DNA from: an uncultured Spirochaetota bacterium
GTDB lineage: Bacteria > Spirochaetota > Spirochaetia > SZUA-6 > DRHE01
Direction: 5' to 3'
Length of the DNA: 64,000 nt
Assembly (NCBI GenBank): GCA_963736785.1
Contig: CAVTQG010000049.1
Coordinates: 93,532-157,531, forward strand
Position 1 is the stretch's first letter, and each line of letters begins with the position of its first letter. This document shows, piece after piece, positions 21,762 to 61,968 of the stretch. The notes under the pieces are model-generated. The model had not been told where the DNA came from and did no database searches. It saw only the letters and a program-made list of their open reading frames with translations. A program made the position numbers and the translations under genes.

Positions 21762-21796
21762 AGCCGATCCGCCCCCGCCGTGCTATCCTCACTGTC

Positions 21797-22809: not shown

Positions 22810-22820
22810 GCGCTCCGGCG

Positions 22821-23740
22821 ATGGCCGCCGCACGCTCCCTGGTGCAGATCATCCGCGACCGCCGCTCCGTGCGGGCCTTTTCGGGTGAGGCCATTCCTGC
22901 CGCGGCCTTCACCGAGCTGGTGGCCGCCTGCGGCTCCCTGACCCGCGGGCCCCTGGGCACGGACGTGCCGCATCCGCCTCGTGGAGGACGTCTGGTCGGT
23001 CTGGGGCACCCGCCTGTTCCTGGCGGGGGCGGCCCGCGGAGGGCCGCACGCGCTGGCGGACCTGGGCCGGCTGCTGCAGGAGCTGGTGCTGCGGGCCTGC
23101 GGCCTGTCCCTGGGCACCTGCTGGATCGGCCTGGGCTTTCCCCAAAAGGCGTTCGCCGAAGCCCTGGCCCTGGCCCCCGAGGAGGTCCTGCCGGCGGTGG
23201 TCGCCGTCGGGCTGCCTTCCGGCCGGAAAACCGCGTACGGGCTGGCGGCCCGACTGGCCACGCGGCGCCTCCCGGCGCAAGCCCTGGGGCGAGCTATTCT
23301 TCGATGGCGACTTCCGCACTCCCCTCCCCGAACCGCCCGCCGAGGCCGCTGGCCCCTACGCGCTGGCCCTGGAAATGGTGCGACTGGCCCCCTCGGCCCG
23401 CAACCGCCAGCCCTGGCGCATCGTGCGCGACGGCGCCGGCGGCGAAACCCGCTGGCGGCGCAGCCCCGGTTCCACTTCTTCCGGCAGCAGCCGGCCGGGC
23501 TCCTGTCCTCCCGCCCCGACTGGCTGCGCCTGGACATCGGCATCGCCATGGCCCACTTCGAGCTCACCCTGGCCGAGGCGGGGGTGCGCGGGCGGTGGTC
23601 GGCGGCCGGCCTGGCCAGCGGTGGCAACCCCGAAGGGCCCATCCGCCTGCCGGCCGCAAGCGGGCGCTCGCTACGCGCCTTCGGGGCTACCGCCCCGCAC
23701 CGAGTACGTGGCCACCTGGCTGCCGGAGGATCGCCCGTGA
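22821..23740 (+). CDS. Nitroreductase-family protein (two nitroreductase-like halves); frame shifts near 22960 and 23330
   Basis: N-terminus MAAARSLVQIIRDRRSVRAFSGEAIPAAAF (classic nitroreductase start); second half LAPSARNRQPWRIV; C-terminal TEYVATWLPEDRP*. The pieces lie in three frames. The stop overlaps the alaX GTG (GTGA). Confidence 0.55.
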
Positions 23741-24969
23741 CCCGTCGGCTGTACTACGAGGACCCGGAGCTGACCCGCTTCTCATCGCGCCTGTTGGGCC
23801 AGGAGCCGCTGGAGGGGGCGGGACCGCCGCGCTGGGCTGCGATCCTGGAAGCCACCGCCTTCTACCCCGAGGGCGGTGGCCAGCCCGCCGACCGCGGCAC
23901 CCTGGAGGGGGTGCCGGTAACGGACGTGCAGGACCGCGAGGGGGAGGTGCTGCATATCCTTGCCGCGCAGCTGGACGCGGCGCCGGGGACCTCGGTGTCC
24001 TGCGAGGTGGACGCTGAGCGCAGGGCGGATTTCCGGCGGCAGCACACGGGCCAGCACATCCTGTCCGCCGCCCTACAGGCTGCAGCCCGGGCCCGCACCG
24101 TGTCCGCCAACCTGGGCGAGGAGCTCACCTCGGTGGAGGTTGACCTCCCGACCCTGAGCGCGGAGGATCTGGGCGCCGCGGAAGAAGAGGCCAACCGCCT
24201 GGTATGCCGAAACCTCCCGGTGCTCACCCACTGGGTGAGTCCCGAAGAGGCGGCCCGCTTTCCGCTGCGCAAGCCTCCCCCGGCGGGCCTGCAGCGACTG
24301 CGGATCGTGGAGATCCCCGGCGTGGACGCCAGCGCCTGCGGCGGGCTGCACGTGTCCTCCACGGGCGAGGTAGGGCTGATCCGCTACGCCGGACAGCAGA
24401 AGATCCGCGGGCGGGTGCGTCTGCAATGGAGGATCGGCAGCCGCGCCTGGCGTGAGCTGCGTGCCCGGGAAGGCGTGCTGGCCGAGTTGGCGCGCGAGCT
24501 CACCTGCGGCGTGGAGGAGCTGCCGGCCTCCGTGCGCACCCTAAGGGCCCGGCTTAAGTCCCAGGAGCTGGCAGTGGCGGGCGCGGAGGAAAGGCTGGCG
24601 GGGCTGCTGGCCGAGCGCCTGCGGGGCGAGGCAGAAGAAGTCGCGCCCGGGGGGCCCAGGCTGGTCTGCCGCCTTCTGGAAGCGGAAGGCCCGGCCCTGC
24701 TCCCGGCGCTGTTCCAGGAGCTGGCCTCCTCGCCCCGCACGGTGGTCTGCCTGGCAACCGCCTCCGGGGAAGGCGTCCTGTCATGGCTGCTGGGCTGCAG
24801 CGAGGACCTGAGCTTAGAGCTGGGCGCCCGGCTCCCGGCGCTGCTGGCGCCGATCGAGGGCAAGGGTGGCGGGCGGGGGCGCCGCTGGCAGGGCACGGGC
24901 CGCCGCCCGCAGGGCTGGCCCGCGCTGTGCGCCGAATTGGGTCGCCTGCTGCGCGAACCGCCGGCCTGA
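23737..24969 (+). CDS. alaX: Alanyl-tRNA editing protein AlaX-like (Ser-tRNA(Ala) deacylase, tRNA_SAD domain)
   Basis: GTG start. Motifs RRQHTGQHILSAAL (HxxxH) and ACGGLHVSSTGEVG (CxxxH) of the AlaRS editing domain. ~410 aa. Confidence 0.7.
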   Translation: MTRRLYYEDPELTRFSSRLLGQEPLEGAGPPRWAAILEATAFYPEGGGQPADRGTLEGVPVTDVQDREGEVLHILAAQLDAAPGTSVSCEVDAERRADFRRQHTGQHILSAALQAAARARTVSANLGEELTSVEVDLPTLSAEDLGAAEEEANRLVCRNLPVLTHWVSPEEAARFPLRKPPPAGLQRLRIVEIPGVDASACGGLHVSSTGEVGLIRYAGQQKIRGRVRLQWRIGSRAWRELRAREGVLAELARELTCGVEELPASVRTLRARLKSQELAVAGAEERLAGLLAERLRGEAEEVAPGGPRLVCRLLEAEGPALLPALFQELASSPRTVVCLATASGEGVLSWLLGCSEDLSLELGARLPALLAPIEGKGGGRGRRWQGTGRRPQGWPALCAELGRLLREPPA

Positions 24970-25832: not shown

Positions 25833-27440
25833 GTGCAGGCAGTGGCGCCCCTGGAGCGTTCCTGCGGGATCCTCCTGCATCCCACCTCCCTCCCCGGAGC
25901 ATTCGGAATCGGCGGCCTGGGCGCGGAGGCCCGGGCTTTCGTGGAGTTTCTGGCCGCCGGCCGGCAGTCGCTCTGGCAGGTGCTGCCGCTGGGCCCCACC
26001 GGTTACGGCGATTCCCCGTACCAGAGCTTCTCCGCCTTCGCCGGCAACCCACTGCTCATCGACCCGCCAACTCTGGCCGAGGAAGGCCTGCTGGCCGCCG
26101 CCGACCTCGCCGACCCGCCTGCATTTCCCGAGGAGCGGGTGGACTACGGCACGGTCATCCCCTACCGGACGGCTCTCCTGTCCTCCGCCTGGCGGCGCTG
26201 GAACGCCGGCACGCGGGACCGCGGAGGCCTGGAAGCCTTCCGCCAGGCCTCCGCCTCCTGGCTTCCGGACTACGCCCTGTTCATGGCGCTGAAACGCCAC
26301 TTCGCCCAGCGCGGGCTCCATGTGTGGAACCGCTGGCCCGCGGAGCTGGCCCGGCGCGAGGCGGACGCGCTCCGGCAGGCGCGTCTCGAGCTGGCGGAGG
26401 CGATCGGATTCGAGGAGTTCCAGCAATACCAGTTCTTCCGCCAGTGGGGCGCGCTCAAGCGCCTGGCCGCGGAAAAAGGACTCCGCCTGATCGGGGACAT
26501 CCCCATCTTCGTGGCTTTCGACAGCGCGGACGTATGGGCCCACCAGGAACTGTTCCGCCTGACCGCCTCGAGGGAGCCGGAGGTGGTGGCCGGCGTGCCG
26601 CCGGATTACTTCAGCCCCACCGGGCAGCTCTGGGGCAATCCCCTCTACGACTGGAAGCGCCTGGCCGCCGACGGGCTACCGCTGGTGGTTGGAGCGGGTC
26701 CGCTCGGCCCTGGCCTTGGTGGACCTGGTTCGCCTGGACCACTTCCGCGGCTTCCAGGCCTGCTGGGAGGTGCGGGCCGGCAGGCCCACCGCCGAGCGCG
26801 GGCGCTGGGTCAAGGGGCCCGGGGCCGACCTGCTCGCCGCGCTGGCCGGCGCGCTGGGCGGGCTGCCTCTCATCGCCGAGGACCTGGGCGTGATCACCCC
26901 CGCGGTGGAAAGACTGCGGGACCGCTTCGGGCTCCCGGGGATGAAGGTGCTGCAGTTCGCCTTCGACGGGGACGCCTCCAATTCCTTCCTGCCCCACAAC
27001 TACGGCGCGCAACTGCGTGGTGTACACCGGCACGCACGACAACGACACGACCCTGGGCTGGTACCGCGCGGAAAGCTGAGAAGACGCGCGACCAGGTGCG
27101 CCGCTACCTGGCCCGCGACGGGCACGACGTGGCCTGGGACCTGGTGCGCCTGGCCTACGCCTCCGTGGCTTCCATGGCCGTGGTGCCCCTGCAGGACCTG
27201 ATGAAACTGGGAACCGAAGCGCGCATGAACTACCCCAGCCGGGCGCAAGGCAACTGGCAGTGGCGCTTCACTCCAGCCATGCTGAGCGGGGAGATCAGCG
27301 GCCGGCTGCGGGAGCTGGCCCTGCTGTACGGGCGCTGCCCGCCGGAGCCCGAGGAGCCTGAGAAGCCCGCAAGAGCGGGGTCGGCAACAGCCTCCCCGGC
27401 GGCCGCCGGCAGCCCCGCCGCGGAGCCGGCGCCGCGATAG
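25833..27440 (+). CDS. malQ: 4-alpha-glucanotransferase (amylomaltase MalQ, GH77); at least three frame shifts between 26680 and 27060
   Basis: N-terminus ERSCGILLHPTSLPGAFGIGGLG and PLGPTGYGDSPYQSFSAFAGNPLLID are GH77 signatures. The central block is only coherent in ORF 26689..27201 (DLVRLDHFRGFQACWEV…PGMKVLQFAFDG). The C-terminus is VPLQDLMKLGTEARMNYPSRAQGNWQWRF. Confidence 0.75.
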   Translation: MQAVAPLERSCGILLHPTSLPGAFGIGGLGAEARAFVEFLAAGRQSLWQVLPLGPTGYGDSPYQSFSAFAGNPLLIDPPTLAEEGLLAAADLADPPAFPEERVDYGTVIPYRTALLSSAWRRWNAGTRDRGGLEAFRQASASWLPDYALFMALKRHFAQRGLHVWNRWPAELARREADALRQARLELAEAIGFEEFQQYQFFRQWGALKRLAAEKGLRLIGDIPIFVAFDSADVWAHQELFRLTASREPEVVAGVPPDYFSPTGQLWGNPLYDWKRLAADGLPLVVGAGPLGPGLGGPGSPGPLPRLPGLLGGAGRQAHRRARALGQGARGRPARRAGRRAGRAASHRRGPGRDHPRGGKTAGPLRAPGDEGAAVRLRRGRLQFLPAPQLRRATAWCTPARTTTTRPWAGTARKAEKTRDQVRRYLARDGHDVAWDLVRLAYASVASMAVVPLQDLMKLGTEARMNYPSRAQGNWQWRFTPAMLSGEISGRLRELALLYGRCPPEPEEPEKPARAGSATASPAAAGSPAAEPAPR

Positions 27441-38644: not shown

Positions 38645-39469
38645 GCCTGTACCCGACCCTCCTGGTCCTGCTGGCCGCCGCTCTGCTGGCCTGCGGCGCG
38701 CTGGGCGCGGCGGTGGCCCGGCTGCAGAGCCAGCGACGCCTCCTGGGACAGGCGGCTGGAGCAGAGCGCCCGGGAGCTGGACCGCCTGCAGCGCTCCTTC
38801 GCCCGTTTCGCCCCCGCCGAGCTGGTGGAGCGCATCGCCACCGAGGGTCAGCTGGCCGGCGGGGAGCGGCGGGAGGTCACCGTGCTGTTCGCGGACCTGC
38901 GCGATTTCACGCAGCTGAGCGAGCGCCTGGACGCGGCGGTGGTGCTGGGCCTGCTCAACGGCTACTTCCAGGCCATGAGCGCCGCCATCCAGTCCCACCA
39001 CGGACACGTCACCCGCCTGATGGGCGACGGCATCATGAGCGTGTTCGGGGCGCTGGAGCGCAACCCCTGGCACGTGCAGGACGCGGTGGAGGCGGCCCTG
39101 GACATGCGCCAGTCCCTGGCCCGCTACAACGAGAGCCTCGCTCAGCGCGGGCTGCCGGCCCTGGCCTTCGGGGTGGGCATCCACTGCGGCGCGGTGATCG
39201 CCGGCCTGGTGGGCAGCGATAGGATGCAGGAGTTCACGGTCCTGGGCGACGTGGTCAACGTGGCCTCGCGCGTGGAGGCGTTGACCCGCCGGCTGGGAGG
39301 CGACATCCTGGTGACCGAGGATGTCCGCTCCGTTCTGGGGGACCGTTTCCTGATGGCAGCGATGCCCCCCGCGGACATCAAGGGCAAGAGCCGGCCCATC
39401 CTCACCTGGGCGGTGCAGTCCCTCGCGCTTCCAGCGATGGCCGCGGAGCGCGAAGTCTCAGTACATTGA
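38641..39469 (+). CDS. Membrane-anchored class III adenylate/guanylate cyclase; frame shift near 38740
   Basis: GTG start overlapping the upstream stop (GTGA). N-terminal TM segment LYPTLLVLLAAALLACGALGAAV. Cyclase domain VTVLFADLRDFTQLSE…TRLMGDGIMSVFG…GVGIHCGAVIAGLVGS. Confidence 0.7.
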
Positions 39470-39473
39470 GAAC

Positions 39474-40001
39474 ATGAACTCTCGCCTTATTGCGGCCGGG
39501 CTGGGCGCGCTGATCCTGACCGCCGCCCTGGCTTCGGCCCAGACTCTGTCCCTCACCGGCTCGGCCCCCACGCTCGACGGGGTCGTGGCCGCGAACGAAT
39601 ATTCTCTATCGTTGCCCGTGGGCAAGATCACCCTTTCGGCCTCCCGCACCGCTGACACGGTGTACCTGGCGGTGAGCGCGCCGACCACCGGCTGGGTTTC
39701 GGTGGGCTTCGGCTCGGAGCTCATGGACGGGGCGGATCTTTTCCTAGGCTGCGTGACGGGCGGGAAGCCCAGCTTCACCCAGCAGCTGGGGTCGGAGCAC
39801 ACCCACAGCCGGCTTCCCTCGCCGCTGGCGGTGCGCGACGCGCTGCGCGAGGCCGGCGGCGTCACCACCTTGGAGACCGCGTTCAAGTCCGGGGACGTGA
39901 TCGGCGGGAAGAAGGAGCTCTGGGTGCTGGTGGCTTACGGCGCCGACGATTCCTTCTCCAGCTACCACCTGGCCCGGGGCAGCATCAAGCTCAAGCTCTG
40001 A
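39474..40001 (+). CDS. Secreted protein of unknown function (possibly DOMON-like)
   Basis: Signal peptide MNSRLIAAGLGALILTAALASAQ; ~150 aa mature beta-rich domain. Starts 4 nt after the cyclase stop. Confidence 0.5.
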   Translation: MNSRLIAAGLGALILTAALASAQTLSLTGSAPTLDGVVAANEYSLSLPVGKITLSASRTADTVYLAVSAPTTGWVSVGFGSELMDGADLFLGCVTGGKPSFTQQLGSEHTHSRLPSPLAVRDALREAGGVTTLETAFKSGDVIGGKKELWVLVAYGADDSFSSYHLARGSIKLKL

Positions 40002-40023
40002 ACCCGGCCGGCATCCTGGCCGC

Positions 40024-40593
40024 TCAGCCCAGGATGGCCTCGTTGGTCCAGGTGTAGTCCGAGCCCCACAGCAGGCGCAGCAGGCCGATCTGGCCGGAGT
40101 GATAGGCCCAGTGCCACTGGAGCTGGGTGACCACCCCGCGCACGTTCACCGTCCGGCCGCCGGCCTGCAGCGGGGCGCCGATGTCCGCCACCCGGCTCAG
40201 GGTCGGGCCCGTGTAGCTCTCCTGCACCCGGCGGCAGAAGGCAATCAGCTCCGCCGCCGCGCCGGCCGGCACGGGGGGCTGGTCGAACGCGGTGAGCGCT
40301 CCGATGTCCAGGCTGCCCTGCAAATCCCCCGGAATCGGCTCCCGGGTGAGCCGGGAGACCCAGGTGGCCTCCGCCCAGGCCAGGTGCGCCGTCAGGCGGC
40401 CGATGGAAAGCTTCGTTTCCGGCGGAGAGAAGTCCAGCGCTTCCTGGGGCAGGTCGACGATCTGGTCGTATACCCGCTCGGCCAGCTCGCGCAGCCAGGC
40501 CGCCATGGCGCCCAGCTCCGGGTTCAAATACCCTGGCAGAGAGGGAAGGCCGTAGCGGCGCGGCCGCCCGGTCTTGGTGGGAATCTTTTCCAT
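40024..40593 (-). CDS. DinB/YfiT-like superfamily protein
   Basis: Internal start MEKIPTK at 40593. …HLAWAEATWVSRL…QLQWHWAYHSGQIGLLRLL (four-helix metal-binding DinB-like pattern). The N-terminal 143 codons of ORF 40024..41022 are GC-frame artefact. Confidence 0.55.
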   Translation of the reverse strand: MEKIPTKTGRPRRYGLPSLPGYLNPELGAMAAWLRELAERVYDQIVDLPQEALDFSPPETKLSIGRLTAHLAWAEATWVSRLTREPIPGDLQGSLDIGALTAFDQPPVPAGAAAELIAFCRRVQESYTGPTLSRVADIGAPLQAGGRTVNVRGVVTQLQWHWAYHSGQIGLLRLLWGSDYTWTNEAILG

Positions 40594-40646
40594 ATCCGAT
40601 TGAAGCCAGGATTCGCCGGCCTTGTCAAACCCGCCGGGCGCCGCGC

Positions 40647-42617
40647 TCAGGGCTCGGCCAGCAGGGCCAGCATGGCCTGCGCGTCGCCGGTGGGCAGGCG
40701 GCAGCTGTAGTTTCGGCACACGAAGGCCTGGGCACGGCCATCGGCTGCAGCCCCGTAAGCCCGGGTGAACGGCGCCAGGCGCAGGATCGCGGGCTCGGCC
40801 TGCTCGGTAGGACGCAGGATGAATACGGCGCGAGGCAGGAAGCCCCGATGCAGCGCGCGGGCCAGCGCGGCGGTGTCCTCCCCAGCGGTCCGCCCGGCCA
40901 GCACCACCTCGGAGGAAGGCCCCAGGTAGAAGTCCAGCCCGGCCAGCAGGAAGGTGAAGCCCTGGGGGTGCCGGCCCACCATGGCGGAATGGCGGCGCAG
41001 GAGAGCTTCCGCCGCCTTCCAATACTTCGGCCGGTCGCCGATCCGGGAGAGCCGGAGCAGCACCCGCAGGGCCACCGAGTTGGCCGAGGGCAGCGCCCCG
41101 TCGCCGCTGGGCTGCAGGCGGATGCCGTCCGGCGCTTCGCCTTCCGCGCTCTGGAAAAACCCTCCCCGCGGGTCCGCGTGGCGGGCGAGGAGACGGTCGG
41201 TAAGCTCGAAAGCCGCCTCCAGCGTCCAGGGCTCGAAGCCGGCCTGGTACAGCTCCAGCAGGCCCCAGGCGAGGTACGCGTAATCTTCTGCGAAGGCGGG
41301 GATTGCGGCCTGCCCGTCGCGCCAGCGGTGCAGCAGCCCGCCCTGCGGGTCGCGCAGGGTGCCCAGCGCAAAACGCGCCGCGCGCGCGGCGGCCAGCAGG
41401 TAGTCCGGGCGGTCGAAGGCCCCCGCGGCCCGGGCCAGGGCCGCGATCATCAGCCCGTTCCAGCCGGCCAGGACCTTGTCGTCCCTGCCGGGGCGCGCGC
41501 GCGCGGCGCGCCGCTCGAACAGGCGCGTCCGGGAGGCCTCGCTCAGGGGCCGCTCGGGGTCCAGCAGGTACAGGGTCCCCTCTTCCAGCCCCAGCAGGGT
41601 CAGCTCCCCGGGTTCGAGCAGAGAGGAAAGCTCCTCGCGGGTCCAGCGGTAGAACCTGCCTTCCTCGCCCTCGCTGTCCGCGTCCTCGGCGCAGTAGAAG
41701 GCGCCCTCCGGCGAGGTCAGGTCGCGCAGCACGTAAGTGAAGATCTCTTCGGCGGTGCGGCGGTACAGCGGCTTGCCGGTGAGCTGCCAGGCCTCGGTGT
41801 AGGCCAGGGCCAGCAGCGCCTGGTCGTAGAGCATCTTCTCGTAGTGCGGCACGCGCCAGCCCTCGTCGGTGGCGTAGCGGTGGAAGCCCAGCCCGACCTG
41901 GTCGAAAATTCCTCCGCCGCGCATGGCCTGCAGGCTCCGCTCCGCCATCTCCAGGGCCTCGGGCTCGCGCCGGGTGAGCAGGAACGAGAGAACGTGCGCG
42001 CTGGGGAACTTGGGCGCCGCGCCGAAGCCGCCGTGGCGGCGGTCGAACCGCCCGGCCAACTCCTGGTAGGCCTGCTCGAGCACGGCCGGCCCGGGCGCCT
42101 CACCGGCCTCCCCGGGCTCGGCGGCCTGCCGCAGCGCCGCCAGGATCTGCTCGGCCGAGCCGTCGATCCGGGCGCGCTGCGTGCGCCACAGCTCCCGCAC
42201 GCGGGGAACCAGCTCCAGCAGGCCGGTCATTCCGTTGCGCCCTTCCTTCGGGATGTAGGTGGCCGCGAAGAAGGGCTTGCGCTCCGGGGTGAGGAACACC
42301 GTCAGCGGCCAGCCGCCCTGCCCGGTGAGCAGCTGGCAGGCGGTCATGTACAGCTCGTCCACGTCCGGGCGCTCCTCCCGGTCCACCTTGACGGGCACGA
42401 ACGCTTCGTTCAGGAGCGCGGCCACCTCCGGGTCCTCGAAGGACTCGTGCTCCATCACGTGGCACCAGTGGCAGGTGGAGTAGCCGATGGACAGGAAGAC
42501 GGGCTTGTCCTCCCGCCGGGCCGCGGCGAAGGCCTCCTCGCCCCAGGGGTACCAGTCCACCGGGTTGTCGGCGTGCTGGAGCAGGTAAGGGCTCTTTTCG
42601 TACTGCAGGCGGTTCAC
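40647..42617 (-). CDS. Thioredoxin-domain protein YyaL (DUF255; thioredoxin-like plus six-hairpin glycosidase-like domain)
   Basis: From the GTG at 42617: [60 protein letters not shown] (DUF255 signature with CxxC). GTGA overlap with the upstream YciI-like gene. Confidence 0.75.
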
Positions 42618-42964
42618 GGCAGGCCGGAAATCTCCAGCACCGGCCGGATTTCGATCGTGCCCATCCTGGCCACGGGGATGCGGGAGGCGATGCCGATGGC
42701 CGCATCCAGGTCCCCCGCTTCGACCAGGTAGTAGCCTCCGAGCTGCTCGCGCGTCTCCGCGAACGGGCCGTCGGTAACCAGCCGCTTCCCGTCGCGCAGG
42801 CGGACGCTGGTGGCCAACGGGGTGGGTTCCAGCGGCGAGGCATCCAGGTAGTGCCCGCTGGAATGAAGCTCGCGGGCCAGCTGCGCCGAGTCCCGGTAGC
42901 ATTCCTCCCGCTCCGACGGGCTCAATGCGTTTTCGTCAAGGTATACCAGCAGCATGTATTTCAT
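42614..42964 (-). CDS. YciI-like (YCII-related / DGPF) domain protein, copy 1
   Basis: [12 protein letters not shown]…[21 protein letters not shown]. Confidence 0.7.
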
Positions 42965-43521
42965 TACGGCTCATACCTGAGCATGACCATTCCGGTGCCA
43001 AAGCTTTTCACCTCGACTAGCCGCAAGGGGATTCGCTGTTCCAGCCCGCGGAACATCGGCAACCCGGCGCCCAGCACGACCGGCGCCACGAAAATCCGGT
43101 AGTCATCGATCAGGCCCCGCCGCGACAGCGCTGAGACCAAACCGCCGCTGCCGTAGATCACCAGGTGCTTCCCGGGCTGTTCCTTGAGCTTCGCCACCTC
43201 CTCGGCCGCATCGCCTTTCACCAGCCTGGAGTTCTTCCATTCCACCTTCGCCAGCGTCCTGGAAAAGACGACTTTGGGCAGGTTGTTCATCGCCTCGATG
43301 ATTCTCGGGTCGTCCTCCGTCGAGGAGGCGGTCGGCCAGTAGCCGGCCATCAGCTGGTAGGTGACCCGGCCGAACAGGATCGTGTCGACCGACCCGATCA
43401 ACTGGATGCCGTATTCTTCGAATTCCTGGTCGGCGAGGCCGGTGAACCAATCGATCTCGCCCTGGGGCCCCGCCATGAAGCCATCCAACGAGACCAGGTT
43501 GGAGACGATGAGCTTTCTCAT
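42964..43521 (-). CDS. Dihydrofolate reductase-like (RibD C-terminal domain) family protein
   Basis: [26 protein letters not shown]…HLVIYGSGGLVSAL, typical of the DHFR-like YwjB/RibD_C family. Confidence 0.65.
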   Translation of the reverse strand: MRKLIVSNLVSLDGFMAGPQGEIDWFTGLADQEFEEYGIQLIGSVDTILFGRVTYQLMAGYWPTASSTEDDPRIIEAMNNLPKVVFSRTLAKVEWKNSRLVKGDAAEEVAKLKEQPGKHLVIYGSGGLVSALSRRGLIDDYRIFVAPVVLGAGLPMFRGLEQRIPLRLVEVKSFGTGMVMLRYEP

Positions 43522-44405
43522 TTGGAACCTACTGCTGCCGGCAGCGGTGCGTCGAGGAACTGCAGCGCGGTGGAGGCCAGCTCGGGCCGGCTGAAGATGT
43601 CGTAGTGGGTCGCGCCGGGCAGGATGGCCAGCTGCGCCCTCGAGCGCCCGCTGCCGTCCCAGCCCGCATCCCGCTGCCCGCCGCCCAGCAGCCCGAAAAA
43701 CTCCACCAGGTGCGCGGTGCGCACGGCGTCCGCATCGCCGGCCACGATCAGCACCGGCATCTGCAGGGCCGCCACTTCCCTGGACCAGTCATAGTCCTGC
43801 ATCAGAGCTTCGCCGATTTTGGCCAGCAGCACCGGCCAGTCCTGCGGCCGGGGGGCGATGGCCGCGTACAGCTGGTACATCGGCGTCTGCTTCATGGGCT
43901 CGGCGGCCTCCGCGCCCATCTGTGCCATGCCGGCGAGGATTTCCGGGTACCAGCCGTCCCGCCGGAACGGGGTCGAAACGACCACCAGCTTGCGCACCGC
44001 TTGCGGGTGGCGGATGGCGGTCTGCAATGCCACGGCGCCGCCCAGGGAGTAACCCAGGACGTCAGCCCTGGCCAGCCCGAGGTGCCGGATCAGGGCAGCC
44101 ACGTCGTCCGCCATCAGCTCCACGCGCAGCGGCCGGTCGATATCGGCGGTGCGCCCGTGCGCCTGCAGATCCACGGCGATGACCCGATGGCTCGCGGAGA
44201 GCGCCGGCAGGATCGGGGCAAACATCTCGATGGCCCCTACTCCGCCGTGCAGCAGGACCAGGGGTTGGCCGCTGCCGCGGATCTCGTAGTACATCCTCAG
44301 GCCGTTCACCGGGGCATATCCGCTTTCCGGCGCGCTCTGGGCGAATGCCGCTGCCGCGGACAGCCCGACCGCCGCTACGACCGCTGCTGCCGTTTTCCTA
44401 AACAT
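43518..44405 (-). CDS. Secreted alpha/beta hydrolase
   Basis: Signal peptide [23 protein letters not shown]; LVLLHGGVG…[12 protein letters not shown] (GxSxG)…[10 protein letters not shown]. Confidence 0.7.
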
Positions 44406-44784
44406 TGTCTTCTCCTTTGTAAAGCGCGTTGATCCTCTCGTCGGCCGGCCGTATCTCCCACACCCCGCCGCCCAGGCGGATGGACGGGTGCTTCGACATC
44501 AGGCGGATCGCCTGGTTCAGGTCCCTGGCCTCCAGCACCAGGATCCCCCCCAGCTGCTCCTTGGTTTCGGCAAACGGCCCATCGGTTACGGACAGCTTCC
44601 CGTTGCCAGGCCGCAGGGTGGTCGCGGTTCGAGCGCTTTGCAGGGCCTCTCCGCCCACGAAGTGGCCCTGGGTGCGCAGCTCGCCGTCGTAGGCCAGGCA
44701 TTCCTCGACGAAGCTCTTCTGCTCGCCGCCGGACATCGAGTCCCACACCGTTTCATCCAGGTAACCGAGACAGATGTATTTCAC
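44398..44784 (-). CDS. YciI-like (YCII-related / DGPF) domain protein, copy 2
   Basis: [11 protein letters not shown]…[21 protein letters not shown]. Confidence 0.7.
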
Positions 44785-44871
44785 CTCAGCCGCTCCTCCG
44801 CGGGCGGTAGGTGGCGATGAGCACGCCGGTAGCGGTCGCCTGGAATCGACCAGCTCCTGCCACCAGTTCCC

Positions 44872-45321
44872 TCATGCCGGCTGCCCTCTCCTGACCTTCT
44901 CCACCTGCGCCCGCACGACGGGACTCTCCGCCGCCTTCCGGACCTCCGGGGGGAATTCCTCGTTTTCGAAGACCTGGCGGACCTCGATCACGTCCCCGTC
45001 CTGCGCGGGCACCCGCCTGGCCCAGCCGATGGCCTCCTCCCGGGACTTCGCCCGGATCATCCAGTAGCCGCCCAGAACCTCCCTGGCTTCGGTGAAAGGC
45101 CCGTCGTGTACAGCCGGCTTCCCCCCGGAGAAGCTGACGCGGGCCGCCGTGGCAGGCGAATGCAGCCCGTCCAGGGCGAGGAGCACCCCGGCCTTGGCCA
45201 GCTCTTCGTTGTATTTCATCATCTCCTCCACCGCTTCCGCGTTCGGGGTGAAGTCCGCCCCGGCTTGCTTCCCGTTCGAGCCCTGGTAAACGCCGGGGAT
45301 CATCAGCATCATGAATCGCAT
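44872..45321 (-). CDS. YciI-like (YCII-related / DGPF) domain protein, copy 3
   Basis: [14 protein letters not shown]…[30 protein letters not shown] before the ATG at 45321. The upstream part of ORF 44872..46158 is artefact. Confidence 0.65.
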
Positions 45322-45340
45322 CGTCTTGCCTCCTGGTTCG

Positions 45341-46652
45341 CTAGTTAGTCGATTGGGGAAGCCGGAATTCGACAGGGGCCGGGATCTTTTCCTCCAGGCC
45401 CTGCAGCCGGCCCTCCAGAAACCGCCGCTCCGGCTCCAGCCGCGTGAGAGCGAGCGCCCGCTGGAAGGAGGCCCGCGCCTGCGCCGTCTTCCCCAGGCGG
45501 CGGCACAGCTCCGCGCGCGCCGAGTGGGCCAGGTGGTAGTCGGCCAGCTCGCCGCGGGCCAGGATGCGCGTCGATCAACGGCAGCCCGGCCTGCGGGCCC
45601 GTCGCGCATGGCCACCGCCACGGCGCGGTTCAGCTCGACCACCGGCGACGGCTCGCACCTGCAGCAGCAGGTCGTACAGCCCCACGATCCGCGCCCAGTC
45701 GGTGGCCGCGGCGGCAGGCGCCTCGGCGTGCACCGCGGCGATGGCCGCCTGAAGCGTGTATGGGCCCAAGCGGCGCGAGGACAGCGCCCGCTCGACCAGC
45801 GCCGATGCCCTCCGCGATCTGCTCCCGGTTCCAGAGCGAGCGGTCCTGGTCTTCCAGCAGGATCAGCTCGCCCGCCGGGGAGGTGCGCGCGGCGCGGCGC
45901 GATTCCTGCAGCAGCATCAGCGCCAGCAGCCCCATCACCTCCGGCTCCGGCAGCAGTCTCGACCAGCAGCCGCCCCAGCCGGATCGCCTCGCCCGAGAGC
46001 TCGGCCCGCGTCAGCGAGTCGCCGGAGGACGCCGAGTAGCCCTCGTTGAACACCAGGTAGATCACCTGCAGCACGGCGTCCAGCCGCTCCGGCAGGTCGG
46101 CCTGCGACGGCACCTGGTAGGGAATGCGCGCGTCGCGGATCTTCGCCTTGGCGCGCACGATGCGCTGGGCCAGCGTGGGGGGCGTGGTGAGGAAGGCGCG
46201 CGCGATCTCCTCGGTGGTCAGGCCGCAGACCTCCCGCAGCGTCAGCGCGACGCGGGCGTCCGGCGGCCAGCGCGGGATGGCAGCAGGTGAAGATCAGCCG
46301 CAGCCGGTCGTCCTCGACTTCCTCGTCCATCCGGGCGTCGGCGTCAGGTCCGCCGCCGGCGGCCTCGAGCTGCTCGGCCAGCTCGGACCAGCGAGGCATC
46401 GAAGCGCGCGCGCCGGCGCAGGCCGTCGATGGCCTTGAAGCGGCCGGCCGAAACCAGCCAGGCCCGCGGGTTGGCGGGCACGCCCTCCCGCGGCCATTGC
46501 TCCACCGCGGCCGCGAAGGCGTCGTGCAGCGCGTCCTCGGCCAGGTCGAAGTCGCCGAGCAGGCGGATCAGCGTGGCCAGGATCCGGCGCGACTCGGAGC
46601 GGTAGATCTTATTCAGGGTTTCGCGAATGTTTCCATTGGAGTTTTCCGCCAT
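45341..46652 (-). CDS. ECF-type RNA polymerase sigma factor with a long C-terminal (TPR-like) extension. The YciI/DGPF-associated neighbourhood resembles the ECF42 group. Several frame shifts.
   Basis: Region 2: [56 protein letters not shown]. Then [15 protein letters not shown]. Region 4: [19 protein letters not shown]. Extension: [16 protein letters not shown]…[16 protein letters not shown]…[16 protein letters not shown]…, ending …RLPQSTN* at 45341. The pieces are distributed over ORFs 46344..46694, 45935..46399, 45630..45938, 45575..45769 and the 5' end of 44872..46158. Confidence 0.6.
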
Positions 46653-46804
46653 GCGTTGTATCCACCGGGCAGGACAGTGCCCGAAACCGGACAATGCGGG
46701 CCCGGTATCTTAAAAGCTAATTTAATATGAGCGAAACAGTCAACATAAACCGAACAGCTCGGCCCGGCGTTGGCGTGGTCCGGCCGCTCGTGCGCCCGGC
46801 CAGC

Positions 46805-47929
46805 TCAGGCCGGCAGGACCGGCAGCTCGCCCAGCACCGCCGGCAGCTCCCGGAAAAGACTCACGTTTTCGTGGTGCCGGCCGACCGTAATGCGCACGAA
46901 GGTCGGCAGCCCGTACTGCCCGGCCGGCCGCACGATCAGCCCCCGGGCCATCAAGCGCTGGAACACCTCCTGGCAGTCGCGCCGGGTATCCACGAGAACG
47001 AAATTGGTGTGGGATGGCACATAGTCCAGTCCCAGGCGGCCCAGCTCCGCCGCAAAGTAGCGCTTCTCGCGCGCGCAGTCTTCGAGCGTTCTCCAGGCGA
47101 ACTCCGTGTCATCCAGCGCGGCCAAGGCCAGCCGCTCGGCGATCGCGGACACGCCGAAGGGCGGCTTGATGCGCTGGATGAGCTCGATCACCTGCGGGTC
47201 GCCCACCCCGAACCCGACCCTCAAGCCCGCCAGGCCGTACAGCTTGGAGAAGGTGCGCAGGACAAACAGGTTCTTCATCCCGCGTTTGACCAGAGCCACC
47301 GCTCCCGGCCGGAACTCCGGGTCGGCGAAGTCGACATAGGCCTCGTCCAGCACGGCCAGCACCGTCGGGGGCAGGCTGCTCAGGAACTCCAGCAGCTGGG
47401 CGCGCGGCAAGGCGTCGCCGGTGGGGTTGTTGGGGTTGCACAGGAAGATCGCCTTGGTCCGGGGCGTGACGCGGCGGGCCAGGTCCTCCAGGTCGATGCG
47501 CAGTCCCTTCATGGCGGTGGGAGTGACGGTCGCGCGCATGACCCGGATGATGCTCTCGTAGATCGGGTAGCTGATGCGGGGGATGAGCGTTTCGTCTCCC
47601 TGGTCCAGCACGGCCATGCCCAGGTTGTAGATCACCCCGTCCGCGCCGTTTCCGATGGTGAGCATTTCCCTGGGCACGTCCAGCTTCTCGGACAGGCGCC
47701 CCCGCAGGGCTTCGTTCGTGGCGTCGGGGTAGACATGCAGCTCGTCGACCAGCTCTGCCAGGCAGGCCCGGGCCTTGGGGGAGGAGCCGAAGGGATTCTC
47801 GTTGGAGGCCATCTTGATGACCTCCTTCAGTCCCAGCTCGCTCATCGCTTGCCTGACGGATTTTCCGGGGACGTATTTGCGGGCGCCGAGGGCGCCGGGG
47901 TTGGCGAAGCGCGGGGCTGGGGTATCCAT
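46805..47929 (-). CDS. hisC: Histidinol-phosphate aminotransferase
   Basis: …IKMASNENPFG…LIPRISYPIYE…LCNPNNPTG…VLRTFSKLYGLAGLRVGFGVG (class II aminotransferase/PLP lysine block). Internal start MDTPAPRF at 47929. Confidence 0.8.
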   Translation of the reverse strand: MDTPAPRFANPGALGARKYVPGKSVRQAMSELGLKEVIKMASNENPFGSSPKARACLAELVDELHVYPDATNEALRGRLSEKLDVPREMLTIGNGADGVIYNLGMAVLDQGDETLIPRISYPIYESIIRVMRATVTPTAMKGLRIDLEDLARRVTPRTKAIFLCNPNNPTGDALPRAQLLEFLSSLPPTVLAVLDEAYVDFADPEFRPGAVALVKRGMKNLFVLRTFSKLYGLAGLRVGFGVGDPQVIELIQRIKPPFGVSAIAERLALAALDDTEFAWRTLEDCAREKRYFAAELGRLGLDYVPSHTNFVLVDTRRDCQEVFQRLMARGLIVRPAGQYGLPTFVRITVGRHHENVSLFRELPAVLGELPVLPA

Positions 47930-47979
47930 GGGCGCATCATAGAGGAAAAACCCGCGCCGGGTCAAAGAGCGCCGGGTCC

Positions 47980-48009
47980 TTGCCCCGCGCGCAACCGGCG
48001 GTCTATACT
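47980..48009 (+). promoter_or_regulatory. Sigma70-like promoter carrying the 16-mer CGGCGGTCTATACTCC, which is repeated at 60464-60479
   Basis: TTGCCC (47980-47985), 18-nt spacer, TATACT (48004-48009). The identical 16-mer precedes the MttB-like gene at 60523. Confidence 0.45.
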
Positions 48010-48016
48010 CCACCCG

Positions 48017-48442
48017 ATGAACCGGCCCTTGAGCGAGCTGGTGGAGAGCGGCTACGGCGAGGAGCACGACCTGAACTGCGCCGAGACCATCCTGTGGGGA
48101 GCCAACGCGGTATACGATCTGGGGCTGGACCGCAACGCCCTGCGCCTGGCCGCCGGCTTCGGCGGGGGCATGGGGATAGAAGCCACCTGCGGAGCCCTGA
48201 CCGGCGCGATCCTGGTGATCGGGCGGATGTTCACCCGCGACCGCGGCCACGAGAGCCCGCGGGTCAAGGAGCTGTGCGTCCGGTTCCTGGAAGCCTACAA
48301 GGCCCGGATGGGAAGCATCGACTGCGCCCCCCTGAAGGCCCGGTACCGCAGCGAGGAGCTCAAGTGCCGGACGGTGGTGTTGCAGGCGGCCCGCATCCTG
48401 GAAGAGCTGATCGGCGAGCTGCAGGGTACAGTGGAGCGGTGA
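48017..48442 (+). CDS. C_GCAxxG_C_C-family putative redox-active protein
   Basis: 141 aa; …HDLNCAETILWGANAVYDL…GGMGIEATCGALTGAILVIG…SIDCAPLKARY…ELKCRTVV: four conserved Cys in the family arrangement. Confidence 0.6.
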   Translation: MNRPLSELVESGYGEEHDLNCAETILWGANAVYDLGLDRNALRLAAGFGGGMGIEATCGALTGAILVIGRMFTRDRGHESPRVKELCVRFLEAYKARMGSIDCAPLKARYRSEELKCRTVVLQAARILEELIGELQGTVER

Positions 48443-48502
48443 GCGCCGGCGCTCAAACCCCGTCCTTGACCGCCGCGCAGACAGGAAGTATCATCGGCAG
48501 CC

Positions 48503-49912
48503 ATGCGCATTTCGCCCCGCTCTTCTTTCCTGGAAAGCCCCCAGTGCGAACAGATCCACCAGGCGGCGCTGGAGATCCTTCGCCGCACCGGAGTGCGCGT
48601 CTTCCATGATGAAGCCCTGCGCCTGCTGGGCGAAGCCGGCTGCCTGATTCAAGAGGAAAACCTGGTGCGGATACCCGCCGCGCTGGTGGAGTGGGCCCTG
48701 CGGCAGCCCCCCTCCCGCATCGCCCTCTGCCGGCGCGGCGGCGGTGAAACGGCCGTGCCCCTGCACGAGCGCAACGTGAGCTTCGGCCCCGGATCGGATT
48801 GCCCGAACTACCTGGACCCGCTTTCAGGCCAGCGCCGCCCCTTCCGCCTTGCGGACCTGGAAGCCCTGCTGCGCCTGGTGGATGGCCTGCCCGAGCTGTC
48901 CTTTCTCATGTCCGCGGGAATTCCGTCGGATTTCCAGGGCAACGCCTATCGCAAGCAGTTCGCGCTGATGCTCCAAAGCAGCGTGAAGCCGATCGTCTTC
49001 GTCTGCAACGACGCAGAGGACTGCCGGCGGATCGTGGCCGCGGCCGCGGCCGTTGCCGGCGGCCCCGAAGCGCTGCGCCTGAATCCGACCCTGCTGTTGT
49101 ACTCCGAACCCACCACCCCGTTGCAGCACAGCCGGACGGCGCTGGAAAAGCTCCTGCTCATGGCCGAAGCCGGGCTGCCCGTGCTGCACTCCCCGGCGCC
49201 GATGATGGGCGGCACCGCCCCGGTGACGCTGGCCGGCGGCCTGGCCCTGGGCACGGCCGAGGCCTTGAGCGGCCTCCTCATCCAGCAGCTCAAGCGCCGG
49301 GGCGCCCCCTTCGTGTTCGGCAGCGGGCTGCACCACCTGGACATGAAGACCTCGATCAGCGTGTACGGGGCCCCGGAGTTCCAGCTGGCCCGGCTGGCGG
49401 TCGCCGATCTGGGCCGCTTCTACGGACTGCCGACCTGGGGATACGCGGGGCACTCGGACAGCTGCCTGTTCGACGAGCAGGCGGCGGCGGACGCCGTCTT
49501 TTCGACCCAGGTGGCCCTCCAGAGCGGCACGAACCTCATCCACGACGTGGGCTACGTGGAAGCAGGCCTTACCGATTCGCCGGAGATGATGGTTTTCACC
49601 TGCGAGATCATCCGCATGCTGCGGCGCTTCGAGCAGGGCATCCAGCTGGACGCCGCCTCCCTGGCCCTGGAGGTCATCCAGGCCGTCGGCCCGGGCGGCA
49701 ACTACCTGGCCGCGGACCACACCCTCGAGCACTTCCGGGAGTACTGGCAGCCCGAGCTGTTCAGCCGCCAGCGCCTGGCCGCCTGGCAGGAGGAGGGCGC
49801 CAAACCCTTGGGCCGGCGAGTGCGGGAGAAAACCATCGAGCTCATGCGGCAAGCCGAGGGCTCGCCGCTGCCGGACTCCCAGGCTAAGGAAGTGGAGTAT
49901 ATTCTGGCATGA
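48503..49912 (+). CDS. MttB-superfamily (trimethylamine methyltransferase-like, non-pyrrolysine) methyltransferase, paralog 1
   Basis: 469 aa, intact. N-terminus …QCEQIHQAALEILRRTGVRV…; …LHSPAPMMGGTAPVTLAGGLALGTAEALSGL…AVGPGGNYLAADHTLEHFRE. No in-frame TAG/Pyl codon. Confidence 0.75.
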   Translation: MRISPRSSFLESPQCEQIHQAALEILRRTGVRVFHDEALRLLGEAGCLIQEENLVRIPAALVEWALRQPPSRIALCRRGGGETAVPLHERNVSFGPGSDCPNYLDPLSGQRRPFRLADLEALLRLVDGLPELSFLMSAGIPSDFQGNAYRKQFALMLQSSVKPIVFVCNDAEDCRRIVAAAAAVAGGPEALRLNPTLLLYSEPTTPLQHSRTALEKLLLMAEAGLPVLHSPAPMMGGTAPVTLAGGLALGTAEALSGLLIQQLKRRGAPFVFGSGLHHLDMKTSISVYGAPEFQLARLAVADLGRFYGLPTWGYAGHSDSCLFDEQAAADAVFSTQVALQSGTNLIHDVGYVEAGLTDSPEMMVFTCEIIRMLRRFEQGIQLDAASLALEVIQAVGPGGNYLAADHTLEHFREYWQPELFSRQRLAAWQEEGAKPLGRRVREKTIELMRQAEGSPLPDSQAKEVEYILA

Positions 49913-51283
49913 GCTTCGACGGGCCCCTGGCCGCGGGGCGGGAAACGCAGCTCCCCCTGTCGGCGCAGGGGCTTTCCCGGATTCACCAGGCGAGCCTGGC
50001 CGTGCTGGAAGCTACGGGGGTCCGCTTCGCATCGGAACAGGCCCTGACCCTGTTCCGCAAGCGGGGTTTCCGGGTCGAGGGGCAGCGGGTCTTTTCCACC
50101 GAAAAGGACATTCTGCGCGCCCTGGAATCCGTGTCCGGCGAGTTTCACCATCCTGGCCCGCAATCCCAGGCACAACCTGCGCCTGGAACCCGGGGTGGCG
50201 AGCTTCGGCCTGGGCAGGGGGGCGCTGTTCTGGGTCGAACCGGACGGCTCGCATCGTCGGGGCAGGAAGGAGGACCTGCTCGCGGTCACCCGGCTCTGCC
50301 AGTGTCTGGACGTGCTCGAACACTGGGGACCCCTCATCCACCCGGGGGACCTCGATCCGCTGGAAGCGGGCGCCTGGTCCTGCCGGACCATGATCGAATA
50401 CACGGACAAGCCGTACTTGTACAACGGCCGCGAGGACATCGACCTGGTCGCCCTGTCCCTCGGCACCAGCCGGGAGCAGATGGCCGGACGTTCGGATTTC
50501 ACCCGCTCCTACGGGCAAGCCACCGGCATCGTCACCTCGCCCTTGAGCCTGGCCGCCGAGGATTGCGAGACCCTGATGGAGTACGCCCGCTGCGGAATCG
50601 CCTTCCACGTCGCCTCCATGCCTTTGGCTGGAACCAGCGGACCCTGCACCCTGGCCGGGCTGGTGATGCAGCAGAACTGCGAGAACCTGGCGGCGATCGT
50701 GCTTTCCCAGCTGGTGCGCCCGGGCTGCCCGGTGTTCTACGGGGCCATCGGGGGCTGCGCCGACATGCGCTCCCTGAGGCCCCTGTTCGGCACCCCGGAA
50801 GCCCGGCTGATCGAGCGCGCCGGCGCGCAGCTGGCCCGCTCCTACGGGCTGCTGTGCCGGGGCAACGCCGGCCTCACCGATGCGCCGGCCTGCGACTTCC
50901 AGGCCGGAGCCGAAGCCATGCTGCACACCCTGCAGGTCATCCGGGGCGGACCCGAGTTCCTGCCCGGCTGCGGCCTGCTGGGCAGCTACCTGGGGGCTTC
51001 CCTGGCCAAGATCGTGCTGGACGCGGAGCTGATCGCCGTGGCCCGGCGCCTGCTGGTCCCCATCCGCCTGGACGAGCAGTCCCTCGGCGTCGAAGCCCTC
51101 GCCGAGGTCGGGCCGGGCGGCTGCTTCCTCGACCACGCCCACACCTTGGAGCACTTCCGCCGCCGGCAGGCGCCCGACGGCGTGTTTCAGTCCACGGATT
51201 ATGACCGCTGGGCCGAACAGGGCAGGAAGGAAGCGGTCCACCTGGCCCAGGAAAAGGCGCTGCAGCTCATCGCCTGCCTATGA
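49909..51283 (+). CDS. MttB-superfamily methyltransferase, paralog 2 (frame shift near 50150)
   Basis: ATGA overlap with paralog 1. …LSRIHQASLAVLEATGVRF…, then ORF 50195..51283 …HVASMPLAGTSGPCTLAGLVMQQNCENLAAIVL…EVGPGGCFLDHAHTLEHFRR. Confidence 0.7.
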
Positions 51284-60522: not shown

Positions 60523-61968
60523 GTGCAAGCGAACTGTGTGTATCAGCAGACAGCCAGCCTGCAGTTCTTGAGCCCGGACCAGTGCGAGGAGATCTTCCTC
60601 GCCGCCCTGGACATCCTGGATCGGATCGGGGTGCGGGTGCACGAGCCGCGGGGGCTGGACTTGCTGCGAAAGGCCGGAGCCCGGCTGGAGGCGGACCGCG
60701 CCTTCCTTCCCGCCTGGCTGGTGCGCCAGGCCCTGGCCACGGCGCCCTGCCGGGTCCCGGTCGCCCGCCGCGATGGCCGCCCGGCCCTGCGGTTGGAGAA
60801 GGGCCGCTCCTACTTCGGCACCGGCTCCGACACCCAGTTCACCTATGACTTAGCGGACGGAAAGCGGCGCCTCTCCACCAAGCAGGACGTGGCCAACGCG
60901 GCGCGCATCGCCGACGGCCTGCCCCACATCGACTTCGTGATGTCCCTGGGCCTGGCCTCCGACGTGCCCACCTCCTCCTGCTACGTGCACCAGTTCGAGG
61001 CCATGGCGCTGAACACGGTCAAGCCGATCCTGTACACCGCAGCGGACCGGCGGGACGCGGAGGACATCCTGTCGATCGCCGAGGCCATCGCTGGGGGGCG
61101 CGAAGCCCTGGCCGCCCGCCCCTTCCTGGTCCTTTACGCCGAGCCCACCTCGCCGCTGCAGCACAGCCGGGAGGCGGTGGACAAGCTCCTACTGTGCGCC
61201 GAGCGGCGCCTACCGGTCATGTACATCCCCGCGGTGATGCTGGGGGCCACCGCGCCCGTGACGATCGCCGGCGCCCTGGCCCAGATCAACGCGGAGTGCC
61301 TGTCCGGCCTGGTCATGCACCAGCTGGCCGGTCCCGGCTCTCCATTCATCTACGGCGGGGCCGCACCGGTCATGGACATGCGCACCTCCCTGTGCTCCTA
61401 CGGCTCGCCGGAGCTGGCCCTGTCCTGCGCCGGCATGATCAGCATGGCCCGCTGGCTGAACCTGCCCGTGTTCTGCACGGCGGGCTGTTCCGACGCCCAC
61501 ACCTTCGACCCGCAGGCAGGCCTCGAGGCCGGCTACAGCGTCCTGACCATGGCCCTGGCCGGCGGCAACCTGATCCACGACCTGGGCTATTTGAGCGCGG
61601 GCATGAGCTCCTCGATGGAGATGCTGGCCTTGTGCGACGAGGCGGCGGGCCTCGCCCGCTACCTGCTGGCCGGCATCGAGGTTTCCCCCCGCACCCTGGC
61701 CCTGCAGACCATCGAGCAGGTGGGCCCGGGCGGCAACTACATGGCCGAGAGCCACACCGTGGAGAACTTCAAGAGCTCCCTGCACTTCACCTCGATCATG
61801 AACCGGCTGGAGTACACCCGCTGGCAGGAAGCTGGCTGCACGACCCTTCAGGAGCGGGCCAACCGCCGGGTCCGCGCCATCCTGGCCTCGCACAAACCGC
61901 CGGAGCTGCCGGCCGAAGTCGTGAGGACCGTCCGGGCCGTCGCCTCCGGACGGGACCGCGGCGGATGA
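60523..61968 (+). CDS. MttB-superfamily methyltransferase, paralog 3
   Basis: 481 aa, intact; …DQCEEIFLAALDILDRIGVRV…MYIPAVMLGATAPVTIAGALAQ…QVGPGGNYMAESHTVENFKS. Confidence 0.75.
   Translation: MQANCVYQQTASLQFLSPDQCEEIFLAALDILDRIGVRVHEPRGLDLLRKAGARLEADRAFLPAWLVRQALATAPCRVPVARRDGRPALRLEKGRSYFGTGSDTQFTYDLADGKRRLSTKQDVANAARIADGLPHIDFVMSLGLASDVPTSSCYVHQFEAMALNTVKPILYTAADRRDAEDILSIAEAIAGGREALAARPFLVLYAEPTSPLQHSREAVDKLLLCAERRLPVMYIPAVMLGATAPVTIAGALAQINAECLSGLVMHQLAGPGSPFIYGGAAPVMDMRTSLCSYGSPELALSCAGMISMARWLNLPVFCTAGCSDAHTFDPQAGLEAGYSVLTMALAGGNLIHDLGYLSAGMSSSMEMLALCDEAAGLARYLLAGIEVSPRTLALQTIEQVGPGGNYMAESHTVENFKSSLHFTSIMNRLEYTRWQEAGCTTLQERANRRVRAILASHKPPELPAEVVRTVRAVASGRDRGG

Follow-up and report, generated by a model that had tools for sequence, protein, structure and literature searches.

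A probable ECF42-type sigma factor/YCII module with a tail of accessory genes in an uncultured Spirochaetota bacterium

Contig CAVTQG010000049.1, from an uncultured Spirochaetota bacterium, carries a run of eight minus-strand genes that begins with the gene for an extracytoplasmic function (ECF) sigma factor. We analyzed a 64-kb stretch of this contig (the window; all coordinates are window positions), in which the eight genes extend from 46652 to 40024. Our reading, to which we assign a probability of about 0.8, is that the cluster is a standard ECF42-type sigma/YCII module followed by a lineage-specific tail of accessory genes, and that the frameshifts interrupting the sigma gene in this assembly are artefactual. 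With over 10,000 members, ECF42 ranks among the largest groups of ECF factors; a 2019 study by Wu et al. is reportedly among those devoted to the system. What activates these sigma factors, and what their YCII partners do, has to our knowledge yet to be established.

With seven extra bases removed (see below), the sigma gene encodes a 434-aa protein of ECF42 composition. Pfam assigned Sigma70_r2 to residues 16-83, Sigma70_r4_2 to residues 120-171, and DUF6596 to residues 189-288 (E 5e-38, profile positions 1-101 of 102); matches to the tetratricopeptide repeat (TPR) models TPR_2, TPR_1, and TPR_12 at residues 372-402 were weak and under the Pfam cut-offs. Residues 176-434, about 258 aa, make up the C-terminal extension. 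NCBIfam lacks a model specific to ECF42, and the only one of its models that the protein passed was TIGR02937 (sigma70-ECF; 48.2 bits, cut-off 42.9). We used P0001, an intact 430-aa metagenome protein that is 91% identical to the corrected sigma protein, for structural comparison. Its AlphaFold2 model (mean predicted local distance difference test score 80.7, predicted template-modeling score 0.66) is helical throughout residues 186-419. Foldseek matches in the PDB related the tail to TPR superhelices (IFIT1, Tom70, PEX5) and the core to the Mycobacterium tuberculosis ECF sigmas SigE, SigL, and SigH. A sequence search of the PDB with the sigma protein returned generic ECF cores only, and no solved structure over an ECF42 extension. 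Among the open reading frames (ORFs) of the window region 47929-40024, all of which have unrelated Pfam assignments, there is no anti-sigma gene.

ECF42 factors are defined by an extension of about 200 aa, which contains TPRs and is indispensable for activity, by the lack of an anti-sigma factor, and by a conserved YCII neighbor (PMC8999054, PMC7826278). The requirement for the extension has been reported for Streptomyces venezuelae members (PMC8999054), and the hallmarks and promoter of the group are described in PMC8999054 and PMC6180224. At this locus we found every ECF42 feature that can be computed: the sigma2+sigma4 core, the TPR-like extension, the YCII neighbor, the absence of an adjacent anti-sigma gene, and the promoter. 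An initial annotation of this DNA, made from the sequence alone, had proposed an ECF42-like sigma factor with an extension of about 250 aa and no separate anti-sigma gene; the first proposal is borne out by the core, the DUF6596/TPR-like tail, the YCII neighbors, and the promoter motif, and the second holds for the adjacent ORFs. The parts of the cluster are as follows.

45341-46652, minus: sigma factor gene, ECF42-type; 434 aa once 7 single-base insertions are removed
45348-45374, minus: ECF42-type promoter, TGTCGAATTCCGGCTTCCCCAATCGAC; -35 TGTCGA, 17-nt spacer, -10 CGAC
44872-45321, minus: YCII-1; 149 aa, DGPF (Pfam YCII E 8e-19, 68.4 bits)
44785-44871, minus: spacer between YCII-1 and YCII-2; 87 nt, long imperfect hairpin, no U-tract, no ECF42 motif
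44398-44784, minus: YCII-2; 128 aa, GTG start, DGPF (Pfam YCII E 3.6e-18, 66.3 bits)
43518-44405, minus: alpha/beta-fold hydrolase; 295 aa (Pfam Abhydrolase_1 E 4e-21), 8-nt overlap with YCII-2
42964-43521, minus: RibD_C/dihydrofolate reductase-like protein; 185 aa (Pfam RibD_C E 4.6e-27), 4-nt overlap (ATGA) with the hydrolase gene
42614-42964, minus: YCII-3; 116 aa, DGPF (Pfam YCII E 2.7e-22, 79.5 bits), 1-nt overlap with RibD_C
40647-42617, minus: YyaL-like protein; 656 aa, GTG start, 4-nt overlap (GTGA) with the YCII-3 stop
40024-40593, minus: DinB-fold/mycothiol-S-transferase-like protein; 189 aa, 53 nt past YyaL

Recomputed from start and stop codons, the spacings between successive genes are 19, 87, -8, -4, -1, -4, and 53 nt, and the gene positions and gaps of the initial annotation stand. 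So do its three YciI/DGPF paralogs, YyaL, DHFR-like protein, secreted hydrolase, and DinB, all of which Pfam recovered; secretion is predicted from a signal-peptide-like hydrolase N terminus (MFRK...AAAFA/Q) only. All three YCII proteins have both the DGPF motif and the YCII domain (Pfam cut-off 24 bits), and their genes are found no more than 2.7 kb downstream of sigma. YCII-1 has a strong AGGAGG ribosome-binding site. The YyaL protein combines a thioredoxin-like DUF255 domain containing CHWC with a large C-terminal domain. Its Thioredox_DsbH match (PF03190; E 2.9e-79, profile positions 2-162 of 163), CxxC motif, and length, within the class of about 650 to 700 aa, are those of the YyaL/DUF255 family. 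The DinB-fold protein scored 40.9 bits with Pfam MST (cut-off 27) and 33.6 bits with DinB_2 (cut-off 24.8). NCBIfam yielded no YCII, DinB, or YyaL equivalog, and none at cut-off for the hydrolase.

Three relatives served for comparison: L001 and L002, which are short-read JGI contigs, and L003, a 93-kb ENA contig (ERZ25039461 contig_91314) syntenic with the window. YCII-1 is 97% identical to its L002 orthologue. L003 has the same gene order (aminotransferase, sigma, YCII-1, hydrolase, RibD_C, YCII-3, YyaL, DinB, convergent cyclase), and its proteins are 75-90% identical to those of the window (YCII-3 90%, YyaL 87%). Its hydrolase gene is frameshifted and its sigma gene intact. Neither YCII-2 nor the 87-nt spacer is present in L003, where the alignment has gaps of 431 and 43 nt. 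About 474 nt of the window (44430-44902) are thus missing from an otherwise collinear relative: a YCII paralogue was gained or lost recently.

Target promoter and extent of the transcription unit

The ECF42-type promoter, TGTCGAATT-N14-AATCGAC, lies at 45374-45348, overlapping the final sigma codons; 27 nt separate its end from the start codon of YCII-1. It is the single exact occurrence of TGTCGA-N15-19-CGWC in the window. We built a weight matrix from 71 promoter sites of related loci from other phyla. The window site scored 45.5, compared with a training median of 38.6; the next-best site in the 64 kb, at 8.9, is the reverse complement of this same site. When a two-block matrix with spacers of 16 to 18 nt was used, the site scored 35.7 and the best other site within the cluster 1.4. 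The promoter is identical in L001 and L002. Comparison of 83 homologous sigma loci from many phyla yielded a cross-phylum extended promoter consensus, TGTCGAWTT...CNWWCGAC, which is found ahead of YCII and RibD_C genes; of its 171 matches in these loci, 66 are no more than 200 nt away from a gene of either kind. The predicted window promoter also agrees with the RpoE10-dependent promoters of Sinorhizobium meliloti, TGTCGG-N17-CGTC (PMC6180224).

The initial annotation had suggested looking for an ECF42-type motif upstream of 46652 and within the operon. The search returned the site before YCII-1, but the matrix scan found none upstream of the sigma gene. A second ECF42-type promoter in the 87-nt gap (where GGTCGA-N17-CGGC can be picked out by eye), in the 53-nt gap, or upstream of sigma was rejected, scores elsewhere in the cluster being at most 1.4. 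Since the sole ECF42-type promoter is inside the sigma 3' end, between sigma and YCII-1, the sigma-dependent unit is predicted to start after the sigma gene, which weakens the earlier proposal that the cluster is headed by and co-transcribed with it. The locus is a clean example of the layout sigma, promoter in the sigma 3' end, YCII.

How, then, is the sigma gene itself expressed? Two features lie upstream of it.

46714-46743, minus: candidate sigma-70-like promoter of the sigma gene, TTGACT-N18-TAGCTT
46749-46768, minus: terminator-like hairpin with T-rich tail, GCCGGGCCGAGCTGTTCGGT + TTATGTTGAC; past the aminotransferase gene (47929-46805)

The promoter pattern has a single match in the window, where 0.01 would be expected by chance, and both hexamers are kept in L001, L002, and L003 although the surrounding L003 sequence has diverged. 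Because there is no ECF42 motif upstream and this sigma-70-like promoter is conserved, the sigma gene is probably expressed from a housekeeping-type promoter, without autoregulation. The hairpin probably insulates it from the aminotransferase gene. Between promoter and gene, the predicted 5' leader (46655-46712, minus strand; about 60 to 70 nt) contains a GC-rich hairpin (z -2.0 for 46650-46790) that is kept in L001 and L002 and deleted in L003. There, the -10 element lies about 10 nt from the sigma ATG, a leaderless-like arrangement.

Downstream of YCII-1, five genes have overlapping start and stop codons (overlaps -8, -4, -1, and -4 nt). Between 45321 and 40024 we found no terminator-like site, and no sigma-70-like promoter matched inside the cluster. 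Rfam returned nothing over 39000-48500 at E <= 1, so by this search the gaps hold no riboswitch or leader RNA. The hairpin in the 87-nt spacer was rejected as a terminator: its folding energy of -47.2 kcal/mol is not significant (z -1.6), and it has no U-tract. With no terminator, no second promoter, and overlapping start and stop codons, read-through from YCII-1 to DinB is plausible.

We propose that the locus works as follows. The sigma gene would be transcribed from its own sigma-70-like promoter (46743-46714). Its product would be a sigma2-sigma4 core fused to the helical extension of about 258 aa, which, judging from the literature, takes the place of an anti-sigma factor and is needed for activity. 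Active sigma-RNA polymerase would then recognize the sole ECF42-type promoter in the last sigma codons. Transcription from this promoter would enter YCII-1 and would probably run on via YCII-2, the hydrolase gene, RibD_C, YCII-3, YyaL, and DinB.

What lies behind such promoters elsewhere? A YCII gene is found near the sigma gene at 73 of the 83 homologous loci, RibD_C at 12, YyaL at 3, a hydrolase gene at 2 (L003 and L035), and DinB at 1 (L003). We also took a rough census of the ORFs that follow 88 predicted ECF42 promoters in chains at related loci, 284 in all. YCII accounted for 90 ORFs, followed by the sigma factor itself (17, in a YCII-then-sigma layout), Glyoxalase (15), 3-dmu-9_3-mt of the VOC fold (13), SnoaL_2 (12), RibD_C (11), AHSA1/SRPBCC (8), and DoxX_2 (5). 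Tightly spaced same-strand ORFs numbered at least 6 behind 24 of the 88 promoters and at least 8 behind 12. Because long gene chains are common behind such promoters, the seven-gene unit is not unusually large, contrary to the initial annotation.

These counts bear on where the regulon ends. It may consist of YCII-1 only, or at most of the YCII/hydrolase/RibD_C part, with YyaL and DinB, and possibly everything past the 87-nt gap, independent of sigma and placed beside it in this lineage by chance. We regard this as possible, if rather unlikely. It is favored by the rarity of YyaL and DinB near sigma genes and by their absence from the top families of the census. A conserved YyaL-ECF42 linkage was rejected in 80 metagenome YyaL loci (41-60% identity), none of which had a sigma, YCII, RibD_C, hydrolase, or DinB neighbor. 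The junction between YCII-3 and YyaL, moreover, is not the same in L003, which has a 57-nt gap and 123 extra nt there. At the loci of the next-closest sigma homologues, L164 and L165 (83-85% identity), the sigma gene is followed by YCII and then by GFA, SRPBCC, or BNR genes, an entirely different downstream set. However, the 4-nt GTGA overlap joins YCII-3 to YyaL in the window, the gaps are free of terminator-like sites, the cluster has no internal sigma-70-like promoter match, and L003 shares the gene order. YyaL is also the immediate upstream neighbor of sigma in the Gemmatales locus L039.

The initial annotation had counted YyaL, DinB, and the hydrolase as regulon members. They are lineage-specific rather than conserved ECF42 partners; from their tight spacing and the synteny with one close relative, L003, we infer that they may nonetheless belong to this regulon. 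YyaL and DinB are additions of this lineage whose control by sigma is a prediction, and RibD_C and the hydrolase fit a theme of variable small-molecule-handling cargo. The proposed thiol/redox or detoxification programme fared unevenly: detoxification is compatible with the census (glyoxalase/VOC, SnoaL, SRPBCC, RibD_C, DoxX), but a specifically thiol/redox role is not supported. Census cargo of this small-molecule-binding and detoxification type gives a modest, usable lead for choosing candidate inducers.

One could go further and suppose that YCII-1 to DinB form one sigma-ECF42-dependent transcript that couples YCII/DGPF proteins to YyaL and to a thiol-S-transferase-like DinB, with electrophiles or toxic small molecules as the long-sought signal. 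Other ECF42 neighborhoods are rich in glyoxalase/VOC, GFA, SnoaL, SRPBCC, and RibD_C genes. We consider this proposal speculative and improbable; if it were true, the YCII proteins would be sensors of that signal or partners of the TPR tail. The locus as such is typical of a known, very widespread class of switch and reveals no new principle.

Frameshifts in the sigma gene

As assembled, the sigma gene follows the frame path 0, 1, 2, 0, 1, 2, 0, 1 in a three-frame translation. We aligned it with the DNA of L001, L002, and L003 and observed seven single extra bases, at about 46384, 46264, 45958, 45803, 45654, 45597, and 45565. No base was missing, and every frame change was +1. Removing the seven bases leaves a stop-free frame. 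The initial annotation had mentioned several indels in this gene, seven by our count; the sigma peptides it quoted are present but spread over different reading frames.

Perhaps the sigma gene is a true pseudogene with seven real insertions, and the downstream cluster an orphaned regulon that is silent or served by other promoters? The gene as sequenced does contain seven frame changes in 1.3 kb, at a density far above that of the remaining syntenic 22 kb, and the seven downstream genes are intact. The nature of the changes argues otherwise. Decaying bacterial genes are usually deletion-biased; here there are only +1 insertions, no deletions, and no residual stop. A three-lineage count gave synonymous to non-synonymous substitutions of 25:21 on the window lineage, 66:62 on that of L003, and 27:11 on that of L001. 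The window ratio is comparable with those of its intact relatives, whereas neutral decay would give roughly 1:3. Six of the seven insertions fall at codons that are polymorphic in the sigma family, and dropping either of two adjacent bases recreates two common alleles (QVEPS/QVQPS, GIALV/GIGLV, DAILA/DALLA). This allele-blend pattern would fit a consensus merged from two similar sequences.

Unrelated genes are broken in the same manner. Compared with L003, single-base insertions of this type occur in a CMD-like gene (38305), a cyclase gene (38750), and an MttB-family gene (50140), and Pfam shows malQ (Glyco_hydro_77; 25833-27440) and alaS (tRNA-synt_2c; 21610-24969) to be split. The assembly is error-prone throughout the window, with its errors clumped. 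L003, L164, and L165 have "contig_N" names and broken genes too, which suggests that they are long-read assemblies. Because all changes are +1, no stop remains, the substitution ratio is that of intact relatives, the codons hit are polymorphic, and other genes are broken alike, we conclude that the frameshifts most likely arose as consensus errors in a metagenomic assembly that is error-prone and probably long-read, rather than as inactivating mutations; a true pseudogene is very unlikely. The extreme cross-taxon conservation of the sigma gene may explain why they are so dense here, by confounding polishing. The lesson is that a cluster of frameshifts in an ultra-conserved metagenome gene should be assumed to be a consensus artefact before a pseudogene is called.

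Programmed frameshifting or phase variation was dismissed, the seven sites being different, mostly non-homopolymeric, and without a common motif. Further indels relative to L003 are an extra base at 51595 and a missing base at 52899; a molybdopterin oxidoreductase gene is among those affected.

Class assignment and opposing evidence

The window shares with ECF42 systems an ECF core that continues into a C-terminal extension of at least 200 aa with TPRs, the lack of an anti-sigma gene, the adjacent YCII-related/DGPF gene or genes, and the promoter type TGTCG(A/G)-N17-CG(A/T)C. It differs in several respects. The order sigma, promoter, YCII places sigma outside its own regulon, whereas in S. meliloti and Pseudomonas YCII precedes sigma. 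Three YCII paralogues stand behind one promoter; the cluster adds YyaL, DinB/MST, and a secreted-type hydrolase; and the sigma gene is frameshifted in the window assembly. With ECF41 (SigJ-type) factors the window sigma shares a regulatory domain that is fused C-terminally and replaces an anti-sigma factor. However, the ECF41 extension is SnoaL-like and inhibitory, the ECF42 extension is DUF6596/TPR and required, and the neighbors and promoter of ECF41 differ from those of the window (PMC7826278, PMC8999054). Membership in another extension-bearing group (ECF41, ECF56, or SigJ-like) is hardly credible: the core does give weak NCBIfam matches to the SigJ, SigI, and TIGR02957 models, but these reach 34-37 bits where the cut-offs are 271-323 and span residues 14-184 only, the extension consists of DUF6596 and TPR-like helices rather than a SnoaL-like domain, and the neighbors and promoter are those described for ECF42.

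P0001 shares 63-75% amino acid identity with homologues in Acidobacteriota, Planctomycetota, Nitrospirota, Gemmatimonadota, Chloroflexota, Cyanobacteria, Bacteroidota, Verrucomicrobiota, and Pseudomonas, and the best 120 metagenome matches to the window sigma protein are all at least 78% identical to it. Such conservation, unusually high for an ECF sigma factor, suggests strong constraint, horizontal spread, or both.

Several points weigh against our overall reading. The ECF42 assignment stands on architecture, context, and promoter, not on a formal hidden Markov model classifier of ECF groups. With seven frameshifts in 1.3 kb, the sigma gene exceeds the density of the adjacent 22 kb about 25-fold (about 4 to 6 events there; Poisson P < 1e-7), a clustering that needs a special explanation, and the mixed-population consensus that we invoke is itself only deduced from the alleles. 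The -10 element of the L003 promoter is CGGC and not CGAC. Co-transcription of the six distal genes is a prediction from gene layout, other ECF42 neighborhoods show no conservation of YyaL, DinB, or the hydrolase, and promoters of other kinds could lie in the gaps of 87 and 53 nt.

Other features of the window

A block of about 600 nt (39424-40023) adjoins the cluster. It carries a plus-strand gene (39474-40001) that is convergent with DinB and encodes a 175-aa, signal-peptide-bearing protein; the DOMON match of this protein is under threshold (27.1 bits, cut-off 32.7). L003 lacks the insert of about 600 nt with this DOMON-like gene.

The window contains four paralogues of the MttB family (trimethylamine methyltransferase-like, PF06253), at 48503-49906, 49909-51274, 60559-61941, and 62110-63135. 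Near them are a gene for a C_GCAxxG_C_C protein (48017-48424) and ABC/oligopeptide-type transport genes. This region may serve quaternary-amine or methylamine utilisation.

The first 5 kb or so of the window (240-5340) is without the strong periodicity of third-codon-position GC content seen in the remaining window. A 560-aa ORF there (5186-6868) gives a strong match to Borrelia_P83 (E 1e-79), which is probably due to low-complexity charged repeats.

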